DNA of 64,000 bases from Escherichia coli (GTDB lineage Bacteria > Pseudomonadota > Gammaproteobacteria > Enterobacterales > Enterobacteriaceae). Shown in pieces: positions 21,750-64,000 of the stretch (its first letter is position 1; every line of letters begins with the position of its first letter). Below the pieces are notes generated by a model. It was not told the origin of the DNA and ran no database searches. It saw only the letters and a list, made by a program, of their open reading frames with translations. The translations under genes and the position numbers were made by a program. The stretch lies in the NCBI RefSeq assembly GCF_045037415.1, contig NZ_CP173438.1. One strand, written 5' to 3'.

Positions 21750-21773
21750 CTCACCGGAGCAGGCTCCGGTGAG
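21750..21773 (-). other. Intercistronic stem-loop between yqhD and dkgA
   Basis: CTCACCGGAG-CAGG-CTCCGGTGAG, perfect 10-bp stem, directly upstream of the dkgA Shine-Dalgarno on the minus strand; possible partial terminator or processing site. Confidence 0.5.
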
Positions 21774-21833
21774 GTGTTGTGAACTTAAGTCTGGACGAAA
21801 TGCCCGAAAACGAAAGTTTGAGGCGTAAAAAGC

Positions 21834-61467: not shown

Positions 61468-63639
61468 ATGAGTGAAACCATAACCCAGGGCCGTTTACGC
61501 ATTGACGCCAATTTTAAACGTTTTGTGGATGAAGAAGTTTTGCCGGGAACAGGGGTGGACGCTGCGGCGTTCTGGCGCAATTTTGATGAGATCGTTCACG
61601 ATCTGGCACCAGAAAATCGTCAGTTGCTGGCAGAACGCGATCGCATTCAGGCGGCGCTTGATGAGTGGCATCGCAGCAATCCGGGGCCGGTTAAAGATAA
61701 AGCGGCCTATAAATCTTTCCTGCGTGAACTGGGCTACCTGGTGCCACAACCGGATCGCGTGACGGTGGAAACCACGGGCATTGACAGCGAAATCACCAGC
61801 CAGGCGGGGCCACAGCTGGTGGTTCCGGCAATGAACGCCCGCTACGCGCTGAACGCGGCGAACGCTCGCTGGGGCTCACTGTACGATGCGTTATACGGCA
61901 GCGACATCATCCCGCAGGAAGGGGCGATGGTCAGCGGCTACGATCCGCAGCGCGGTGAGCAGGTTATCGCCTGGGTTCGGTGTTTCCTCGATGAATCACT
62001 ACCGCTGGAAAACGGCAGCTATCAGGATGTGGTGGCGTTTAAGGTGGTTGATAAACAATTACACATCCAGTTGAAAAATGGTAAAGAAACCACGTTACGC
62101 ACCCCGGCGCAGTTTGTCGGTTACCGTGGCAATGCCGCTGCGCCGTCCTGCATTTTGCTGAAAAATAACGGCCTGCATATTGAGCTGCAAATCGATGCCA
62201 ACGGGCGGATTGGCAAAGACGATCCGGCGCATATCAACGATGTTATCGTCGAAGCGGCCATCAGTACCATTCTCGACTGCGAAGATTCGGTCGCGGCGGT
62301 TGATGCGGAAGATAAAATCCTGCTGTACCGCAACCTGCTGGGCCTGATGCAGGGGACTCTGCAAGAGAAAATGGAAAAAAACGGTCGGCAAATCGTGCGT
62401 AAACTGAATGACGATCGTCATTACACCGCCGCCGATGGCTCTGAAATTTCTCTGCACGGACGCTCGCTGCTGTTTATCCGCAACGTGGGTCATTTGATGA
62501 CCATTCCTGTGATTTGGGACAGCGAAGGCAATGAAATCCCGGAAGGCATTCTTGATGGCGTCATGACTGGCGCTATTGCCCTCTATGATTTAAAAGTGCA
62601 GAAAAACTCGCGCACTGGCAGCGTCTATATTGTGAAACCGAAAATGCACGGTCCGCAGGAAGTGGCGTTCGCCAACAAACTGTTTACCCGCATTGAGACA
62701 ATGCTCGGTATGGCACCGAATACCCTGAAAATGGGCATTATGGATGAAGAACGCCGAACCTCGCTGAACTTGCGTAGCTGTATTGCTCAGGCGCGCAACC
62801 GCGTGGCGTTCATCAATACCGGTTTCCTCGACCGTACCGGCGATGAGATGCATTCGGTGATGGAAGCTGGCCCGATGCTGCGTAAAAACCAGATGAAATC
62901 GACGCCGTGGATCAAAGCCTACGAGCGTAATAATGTGCTTTCCGGTCTGTTCTGTGGGCTGCGCGGTAAAGCGCAAATCGGTAAAGGCATGTGGGCAATG
63001 CCGGACCTGATGGCAGACATGTACAGCCAGAAGGGCGACCAACTGCGTGCCGGGGCAAACACAGCCTGGGTTCCGTCACCAACCGCTGCTACGCTCCATG
63101 TGCTGCACTACCACCAAACCAACGTACAGAGCGTGCAGGCCAACATTGCCCAGAGCGAGTTCAATGCTGAATTTGAACCGCTGCTGGACGATCTGTTGAC
63201 CATTCCGGTTGCTGAAAACGCTAACTGGTCGGTGGAAGAGATCCAACAAGAGCTGGATAACAACGTGCAGGGGATTCTGGGGTACGTGGTGCGTTGGGTG
63301 GAGCAGGGGATTGGTTGTTCAAAAGTGCCGGATATTCACAACGTGGCGCTGATGGAAGACCGCGCAACGCTGCGTATCTCCAGCCAGCATATCGCCAATT
63401 GGTTACGTCACGGTATTCTGACCAAAGAACAGGTGCAGGCGTCGCTGGAGAATATGGCGAAAGTGGTTGATCAGCAAAACGCTGGCGATCCGGCTTATCG
63501 TCCGATGGCGGGGAATTTCGCTAACTCGTGTGCTTTTAAAGCTGCCAGCGATTTAATCTTCCTCGGCGTGAAACAGCCAAACGGCTATACCGAACCGTTA
63601 TTACACGCCTGGCGTTTACGCGAAAAAGAAAGTCATTAA
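61468..63639 (+). CDS. glcB: Malate synthase G
   Basis: 723-aa [34 protein letters not shown]... Confidence 0.97.
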
Positions 63640-63651
63640 TAGCGTCAAAAA

Positions 63652-63679
63652 AGCCCCGGCAAGTTTTATTGTCGGGGCT
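63652..63679 (+). terminator. Weak stem-loop downstream of glcB
   Basis: AGCCCCG-(14-nt loop)-CGGGGCT about 12 nt after the glcB stop; large loop and no T-run, so only a tentative terminator. Confidence 0.3.
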
Positions 63680-64000
63680 ATGATAGTAACTGCGGTAGTA
63701 CATTTATCCCGGAAATAACCGGAGCGATTATCAGGGTTTAACAATATTAAATACCCGTAGCGCATTACTAGCGGGCCTAAAACAACAATATGGACATCTT
63801 AACGATACTCTGCGCCTGCGTGTGCGGAACAGAAACCCTTACCCGATATACTTGTTATGCCAGAGGTAGCAATTGCGTTAGCAGCGTACTGTTGCTGTAA
63901 AGTATAACGCCTATATTTTACAGTTCAGTCCTCTTTTGCTTATTACAACCTTAAGTATATCAAGCATATAAAGATAATAAGAGACTGAACAATATGGTTA

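Follow-up and report, generated by a model that had tools for sequence, protein, structure and literature searches.

Evidence for conserved elements of the operon mRNA in the glcB-glcA spacer of Escherichia coli, the locus of the candidate small RNA C0719

Introduction

Cis-antisense RNAs of the GadY type pair with the gadX-gadW intercistronic mRNA and direct its processing. Hairpins at intercistronic 3' ends, for instance the REP stabiliser downstream of malE, can also set unequal expression within an operon, as can intrinsic terminators that are leaky or bidirectional. In the rnc and pnp leaders, long stem-loops in the 5' leader serve as RNase III substrates or stabilisers. C0719, which was reportedly first proposed as a small RNA in a 2002 oligonucleotide-array transcriptome survey of E. 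coli, lies in a setting that shares features with all of these.

As at gadX-gadW, a candidate small RNA gene is found between two co-oriented genes of one transcript and on the opposite strand, a likeness of geometry alone. Because C0719 is on the opposite strand of the spacer, it is fully complementary to the intercistronic mRNA. For C0719, glc mRNA processing, RNase III dependence and an effect on the glcB/glcA ratio are at most hypothetical. As at malE-REP and at leaky terminators, a GC-rich hairpin follows glcB, an RNA 3' end lies nearby, and the membrane-protein gene downstream is still transcribed. Unlike a REP element, the glcB-glcA sequence is single-copy, with a median of one place per E. 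coli genome, and on this ground we rejected a repeat or mobile element as the identity of the spacer. Furthermore, the U tract of the glcB hairpin is on the antisense side only, so the hairpin is not a canonical intrinsic terminator on the operon strand. The likeness to the rnc and pnp leaders is one of shape only: an imperfect helix of ~100-120 nt precedes the ribosome-binding site, and its shape is kept as its sequence drifts.

With respect to the C0719 RNA itself (Rfam RF00117), the locus analysed here is identical in position, strand, length and sequence, with no sequence difference. To the description of the C0719 family we add that its structure gains no support from covariation, that its model does not reach past Escherichia, and that the conserved flanks are on the other strand.

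Results

The window contains the known C0719 locus

The window is the whole 64,000-nt stretch of E. coli DNA that was analysed. It carries the glc operon on its plus strand, and its last features are glcB, a 354-nt spacer (63640-63993) and the first letters of the glycolate permease gene glcA (Table 1). RefSeq annotates glcB and glcA on either side of this spacer in thousands of genomes. By alignment, the spacer in the window differs from that of K-12 MG1655 by only 2 substitutions; a window position x converts to K-12 v3 position 3121634-(x-63639). A sequence-only reading of the window had taken the terminal ATGGTTA for the start of glcA, and this was borne out both by RefSeq annotation and by the K-12 alignment, in which the annotated start reads ATGGTTACCTGGACC (MVTWT). 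The G+C content of the spacer is 40.7%, compared to 53.7% for glcB. As glcDEFGBA is treated as a single transcription unit (PMC3265435, PMC10272880), the spacer is an intra-operon gap, and 354 nt is unusual for such a gap.

Table 1. Features of the glcB-glcA region, in window coordinates
Feature	Position	Strand	Basis or remark
glcB (malate synthase G) CDS	61468..63639	+	723-aa ORF, RefSeq-annotated; TAA 63637-63639
Short ORF, 55 aa	63536..63703	-	ORF listing
Short ORF, 49 aa	63616..63765	-	ORF listing
A6 tract (U6 on minus strand, directly after hairpin)	63647..63652		Sequence
Post-glcB hairpin	63653..63678	+	Stems 63653-63662 and 63669-63678; loop GTTTTA
Term-seq RNA 3' end	63683	+	K-12 NC_000913.3 3121590, minus strand; 5 nt after hairpin
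C0719 candidate small RNA (Rfam RF00117)	63694..63915	-	cmscan 298.4 bits, model 1-222/222
Stretch varying with a codon-like period of 3 nt	63777..63797	-	11 Escherichia sequences
Cross-genus conserved block	63790..63863		Alignments of Escherichia, Klebsiella/Raoultella, Citrobacter
Short ORF, 36 aa	63790..63900	+	ORF listing
5' arm of long-range helix closing ~120-nt stem-loop	63846..63863	+	Pairs with 63950-63969
Apical hairpin of E. coli stem-loop	63895..63923	+	12 pairs, one G.U on +; MFE folds
Escherichia-only alternative helix	63923..63990	+	Inverted repeat; MFE of whole spacer
3' arm of long-range helix	63950..63969	+	25-44 nt upstream of glcA ATG
glcA start ATGGTTA (MV..)	63994..64000	+	K-12 alignment, RefSeq annotation; truncated by window end

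The same reading had suggested, with some uncertainty, that C0719 maps to the glcB-glcA interval. This suggestion was right, as three lines of identification agree. RF00117 is matched over its full length (E = 4e-79; gathering score 50 bits). The matched interval corresponds by window mapping to K-12 v3 3121358-3121579 and to U00096.2 3119380-3119601, and the latter is exactly the interval tabulated as C0719 on the K-12 plus strand (PMC4676190 supplement). In Adams et al. 2021, the spacer feature on the strand opposite the glcB 3' end bears the name 'C0719' (EcoCyc G0-8912). The strand of C0719 is opposite to that of both genes between which it lies, glcB and glcA (yghK), and E. albertii also matches RF00117 (272.7 bits). 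The interval is therefore an already known locus, and a candidate small RNA only. Rfam and EcoCyc have listed C0719 for some two decades, and the identification itself adds nothing new. Current RefSeq K-12 has nothing annotated between glcA and glcB, and the annotation of the spacer is 'none' in all 60 of the listed RefSeq E. coli genomes.

It should also be noted that, across the 64-kb window, only two Rfam families exceed their gathering scores: RF00117 and RF02753 'ES173 sRNA' (21768-21831, minus strand, 99 bits vs a gathering score of 90).

The spacer had been called ORF-free, which is not strictly correct, as it overlaps one listed ORF on the plus strand (36 aa) and two on the minus strand (49 and 55 aa). 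These were rejected as small proteins: they are without a Pfam match and are not kept in Klebsiella or Citrobacter, so the label 'non-coding' stands.

The spacer is strongly constrained, and between genera it is least conserved around the C0719 5' end

E. coli and E. albertii differ at 18 of the 354 spacer sites (5.1%), compared to 27.8% of fourfold-degenerate sites in glcB and 34.4% in glcA (198/638 for the flanking genes together; Fisher p ~1e-24). Only 2 differences fall in the 167 nt before the glcA ATG, and none in the last 110 nt. Among 11 Escherichia sequences there are 26 variable spacer positions, mainly in 63640-63826. Judged from these comparisons, the spacer is not neutral, and strong purifying selection acts on it.

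The spacer is present, in single copy, in 4543 of 5426 complete E. coli genomes, which agrees with the reported loss in phylogroup E and some Shigella (PMC3318445). Beyond Escherichia, GlcA homologues of 88-89% identity are found in the Klebsiella/Raoultella group and in Citrobacter freundii. The glcB-glcA spacers there are 398-408 nt (Klebsiella/Raoultella) and 415 nt (Citrobacter) long and ~50% identical to that of E. coli, and RF00117 does not match any of them at E <= 1. Common to the three genera are the post-glcB hairpin, the conserved block of Table 1 and the 45 nt before the ATG; motifs in the block are ATGGACATCTTAA, CTGCGC, GTGTGC, CTTACC, ATATA and TGC(C/T)(A/G)G. The least conserved region between genera is 63896-63950, where the annotated 5' end of C0719 lies.

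Individual E. coli genomes carry rearranged forms of the locus. In strains 2013C-3513 (L082 4606-4839) and TW08637 (H119), the spacer is broken after ~63877, inside C0719; beyond the break come a traT fragment, cptA and IS3/IS110 elements, with glcA absent. In strain PEC408 (L091 3048-6047), the spacer is cut down to its initial 47 nt, which include the hairpin; glcA is gone, and the remnant is followed by ISKpn26 (IS5-like) and then by the type II Zorya genes zorE and zorB2. In O8:H28 strain BMH-17-0027 (L083), there is a 6-nt tandem duplication of CTGCGC at 63809/63810, inside C0719.

Gene neighbourhoods vary further in other enterics. After glcA there is a malic-enzyme gene in Klebsiella/Raoultella (L092/L093 5289-6533), and there are different genes in Citrobacter (L094 5470-8065). 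A search of genome contigs with GlcB gave, among the matches listed, E. albertii and distant Pseudomonas and Burkholderiales loci; the closest listed match besides E. albertii (96%) was from Pseudomonas, at ~67% identity. Given the variable neighbours of glcA and the distance of the next-best listed GlcB, the enteric glc cluster looks patchy and was possibly acquired. At one locus (L095 679-2361), the gene that precedes a permease 89% identical to GlcA is not glcB but a DUF2810 (yibL-like) gene, which suggests that permease genes of the glcA/lldP type have moved between contexts. A sub-threshold STnc380-like RNA match (35.9 bits) lies just upstream of that permease, at L095 420-506. A metagenome scan with a leader motif returned 49 chance matches and no glcA.

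A published RNA 3' end lies just after the post-glcB hairpin

The sequence-only reading had noted a weak hairpin after the glcB stop codon. The hairpin is there, but 'weak' does not describe it: the inverted repeat (63652-63662 / 63669-63679) provides 10-11 pairs, with an energy of -21.5 kcal/mol on the plus strand vs -15.2 kcal/mol on the minus strand. At pair 63659:63672, most E. coli have G.U, one strain has A-U, and E. albertii has G-C. E. albertii, Raoultella (L099) and Citrobacter (L094) each have a G.U pair at a position of their own in the plus-strand hairpin. Each of these G.U pairs, from four lineages in all, is an A.C mismatch on the minus strand. The plus-strand hairpin is more stable by 4-9 kcal/mol in four of eight variants and by 1.4 kcal/mol in a fifth, and the strands differ by no more than 2 kcal/mol in the two variants of Klebsiella type. 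The comparative data for the hairpin point to the operon strand.

Inspection of transcript data had been suggested as a check on the spacer, and the published transcript-end data supply part of an answer, giving a 3' end on the glcB strand only and no minus-strand end. In supplementary file 1 of Adams et al. 2021, the end at 3121590 is entered as the primary end of glcB, lying antisense to C0719; the 61-nt flank given with it is identical to window 63633-63693. This end could arise by exonuclease trimming instead of termination. The bases just downstream of the hairpin on the operon strand, CUAUGAUAGU, do not make up a U tract, and a terminator scan of the spacer returned zero calls. A hairpin of this kind fits a leaky end inside glcDEFGBA.

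The minus strand presents a different picture. Read from 63678 to 63653, the hairpin, with its A.C mismatch, is directly followed by U6, and the whole element is 16-47 nt past the annotated end of C0719. The corresponding A tract varies from A5 to A7 among Escherichia and is an A5 run in Klebsiella/Raoultella and Citrobacter. Because U6 follows the hairpin on the minus strand, and the tract is kept in three genera, the element resembles an antisense terminator. This resemblance is the best argument at the level of sequence for the existence of a minus-strand transcript. The terminator scan passed over the element, and Term-seq places no 3' end at this site.

A separate observation concerns the end of the glcB coding region. 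An Hfq-CLASH supplement lists one chimera between ucpA mRNA and the final 30 nt of the glcB CDS (window ~63600-63630, K-12 3121643-3121673), with a predicted duplex of -23.2 kcal/mol.

A predicted stem-loop in the glcA leader of three genera

A long-range helix upstream of glcA (Table 1) emerged when nine sequences, drawn from three genera, were folded to a consensus. In this helix 89.5% of cells are paired, compared to 26-53% in slid controls, and three pairs are doubly changed (U-A/C-G, A-U/G-C/G.U and G.U/A-U/G-C), the comparison comprising three independent lineages only. Folded separately, the E. coli, Klebsiella, Raoultella and Citrobacter leaders each give one long imperfect stem-loop with the same closing helix, and in each lineage it is followed on its 3' side by an open A/U-rich segment with the ribosome-binding site. 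The fold of the whole plus-strand spacer has z = -3.18, equalled by none of 100 shuffles. The strand signal of the leader helix favours the plus strand in Klebsiella/Raoultella (duplex -23 vs -14 kcal/mol; z -3.8 vs -1.1) and is mixed in Escherichia and Citrobacter; in Escherichia there is one G.U on the plus strand and two on the minus. The helix is also weaker in Escherichia (-11 kcal/mol) than in Klebsiella (-23 kcal/mol).

Both arms are contained only in an RNA that spans 63846-63969, which would be either glcB-glcA read-through or an antisense RNA longer than the annotated one. The annotated C0719 includes one arm of the helix, and its 5' end at 63915 falls inside the apical hairpin.

An alternative helix, formed by GTTCAGTC(C)CTCTT (63923-63935) and AAGAGACTGAAC (63979-63990), covers the Shine-Dalgarno-like AAGAG of glcA at 63979-63983. 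Escherichia shows no variation in the sequence of this helix, and Klebsiella lacks the pairing.

The conservation of this region could instead operate at the level of DNA, with an internal promoter and regulator sites for separate expression of glcA and with the RNA helices being incidental. Several observations are in keeping with such an arrangement. The most conserved part of the spacer is the 170 nt immediately before glcA; the short blocks shared between genera, at 63790-63863 and 63950-63993, resemble operator/promoter blocks; and the 3' arm in Klebsiella contains the near-palindrome ATACCAGGTAT. In addition, glcA mRNA responds differently from glcD to LldR overexpression (PMC10272880), and since much of the glcB transcript ends at 63683, glcA may need a start of its own. 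However, no sigma-70-like promoter passes the plus-strand scan, glcA is counted as part of the glcD transcript (PMC3265435, PMC10272880), and the LldR gSELEX peak is at glcD/glcC only, with none in the spacer (PMC10272880). Furthermore, paired changes between arms ~100 nt apart are predicted by an RNA helix and not by separate protein sites. We therefore regard conservation at the DNA level as an unlikely explanation.

C0719 as a discrete RNA

Folding of the 222-nt C0719 segment is average compared to shuffled sequences on both strands (z = +0.10 and +0.23). The Rfam structure has 99.7% of cells paired among 11 Escherichia sequences, with 0 compensatory pairs and with shuffle controls identical to the observed value. 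Consensus folding within Escherichia likewise found no compensatory pairs on the plus (-93.7 kcal/mol) or minus (-90.1 kcal/mol) strand. Three one-sided changes in the Rfam helices retain pairing through G.U on the minus strand, a weak hint that mildly favours a minus-strand RNA, the structure itself having been derived from the same sequences.

Promoter and terminator prediction across the spacer had been proposed as a further check, and it failed to call either element on either strand. The only promoter-like hits of the consensus scan are ~230-275 nt inside glcA and do not rise above shuffles, so that no promoter could be placed for C0719, nor an internal one for glcA. The spacer has no entry in the SMRT-Cappable-seq and TERMITe supplements, the Term-seq tables of Adams et al. 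2021 list no 3' end on the C0719 strand within it, and the p19 dsRNA data place a site inside glcB only. Neither 'C0719' nor glcA occurs in the available portion of the Hfq-CLASH supplementary files.

Expression data for C0719 come from fed-batch culture, in which its reads rise ~40- to 80-fold in transition and stationary samples, from tiny values of 0.3-3 to 15-30 (PMC4676190). In one table of the same study, C0719 expression is ~100- to 1000-fold lower than that of RygC, RygD and RnpB, and ~10-fold lower than that of ArcZ. As the text of PMC4676190 makes no mention of strand-specific libraries, these reads may derive from glc mRNA. Overexpression of C0719 was without phenotype for biofilm, motility and fimbriae (PMC4606813). 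In a mutant with a mariner insertion at the C0719 site, retrohoming of a group II intron was reduced, as was top-strand synthesis in extracts, an effect that the authors left unexplained (PMC3636086).

These data bear on whether C0719 is a trans-acting small RNA that regulates distant mRNAs by base pairing and for which the spacer is conserved. Such an RNA would need a minus-strand promoter of its own near 63916-63960 and a 3' end at the hairpin and U6 (~63647), giving a length of ~270 nt. It would account for the standing of C0719 as a curated Rfam family and EcoCyc gene, the U tract kept across genera behind the minus-strand hairpin, the rise in reads in transition and stationary phase, the effect of the transposon insertion, and the minus-strand G.U pairs that remain after one-sided changes. 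It does not fit with a segment that folds no better than shuffles and whose Rfam structure lacks compensatory change, with the failure of RF00117 to match the Klebsiella and Citrobacter spacers, or with the presumed promoter and 5'-end region being the least conserved part. Nor does it fit with the negative promoter, Term-seq, overexpression and (for the available portion) Hfq-CLASH results, with expression far below that of established RNAs in reads that may be those of glc mRNA, or with the missing annotation in current RefSeq. Evidence for C0719 as a discrete functional RNA is thus weak, given the low reads and the lack of a mapped 3' end, a predicted promoter or covariation, and we consider a trans-acting role improbable.

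A stretch of codon-like variation within C0719

Among the 11 Escherichia sequences, the variable sites in 63777-63797 are confined to one phase, which varies at 6/7 positions compared to 0/14 for the other phases. When the variable sites were placed at random 300 times, this periodicity was never matched, whatever the window or phase. The minus-strand reading of the stretch is ATG TCC ATA TTG TTG TTT TAG (MSILLF*). On the plus strand, it contains a AACAACAAU run, AAC AAC AAT, or (A-R-N)3, at 63781-63789, in which the N positions are free. The periodicity could reflect either the minus-strand 6-codon ORF or the plus-strand run.

If the former, the minus-strand transcript might be a tiny mRNA whose selected feature is translation of MSILLF from 63797 to 63777. 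Besides the periodicity itself, this is suggested by E. albertii, in which the changes are three synonymous substitutions and TAG to TAA, and by Klebsiella/Raoultella, in which ATGTCCAT is kept behind a strong AAGGAG Shine-Dalgarno. In E. coli, however, the Shine-Dalgarno is only weak and the ATG is ATA in one strain (L090), Citrobacter has no ATG, and the periodicity also fits the (A-R-N)3 run on the plus strand. In Klebsiella the frame stays open for 66-111 codons and matches no family, so neither its length nor its sequence is conserved. We find a translated mini-ORF to be the selected feature only with very low probability.

The longer Klebsiella minus-strand ORF (66-111 aa) was also considered as a small protein in its own right and was rejected, as it has no Pfam or NCBIfam match and its length is variable.

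Discussion

The explanation that we favour, with moderate confidence, is that the glcB-glcA spacer is a cis-acting intercistronic region, consisting of a leaky 3'-end hairpin for glcB and a structured leader for glcA, and that it is overlapped by a low-abundance antisense transcript, C0719. In this scheme the hairpin after the glcB stop codon would produce or protect the 3' end of glcB mRNA. Since the hairpin has no U tract on the operon strand, part of transcription can continue into glcA, and such partial read-through would yield unequal amounts of the enzymes and of the membrane permease. The read-through RNA would fold into the long imperfect stem-loop ~25 nt upstream of the glcA start codon. 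This stem-loop, the shape of which is kept in three genera, probably sets the processing, stability or translation of glcA mRNA. C0719 would be an antisense transcript that ends on the minus strand at the hairpin and U6. If it has a role, the likeliest and simplest would be to pair with the read-through mRNA in the manner of GadY at gadX-gadW. The cis-acting model leaves the effect of the transposon insertion at C0719 on retrohoming (PMC3636086) unaccounted for.

A more elaborate arrangement, which we put forward tentatively and as a possibility of lower probability, is a so far unrecognised module for post-transcriptional control of the glycolate permease that combines the leaky hairpin and the three-genus stem-loop with the 63777-63797 element, the latter acting as a translated 6-codon ORF within the antisense C0719 transcript or as an (A-R-N)n Hfq-type site of the glcA leader. 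In such a module, C0719 would serve as the antisense or coding partner and would not be a free-standing small RNA.

What this analysis adds to the C0719 entry is evidence on the strand, on the strength of constraint, and on the conserved elements, which are mainly those of the operon mRNA rather than those of the annotated small RNA. Constraint on the spacer is better explained by operon-strand elements than by the annotated antisense RNA. If confirmed, the cis-acting model would explain how the level of a membrane permease is uncoupled from that of the soluble enzymes encoded by the same operon in E. coli, and it would give a concrete role, or non-role, to one of the long-standing orphan 'C0xxx' small RNA candidates.
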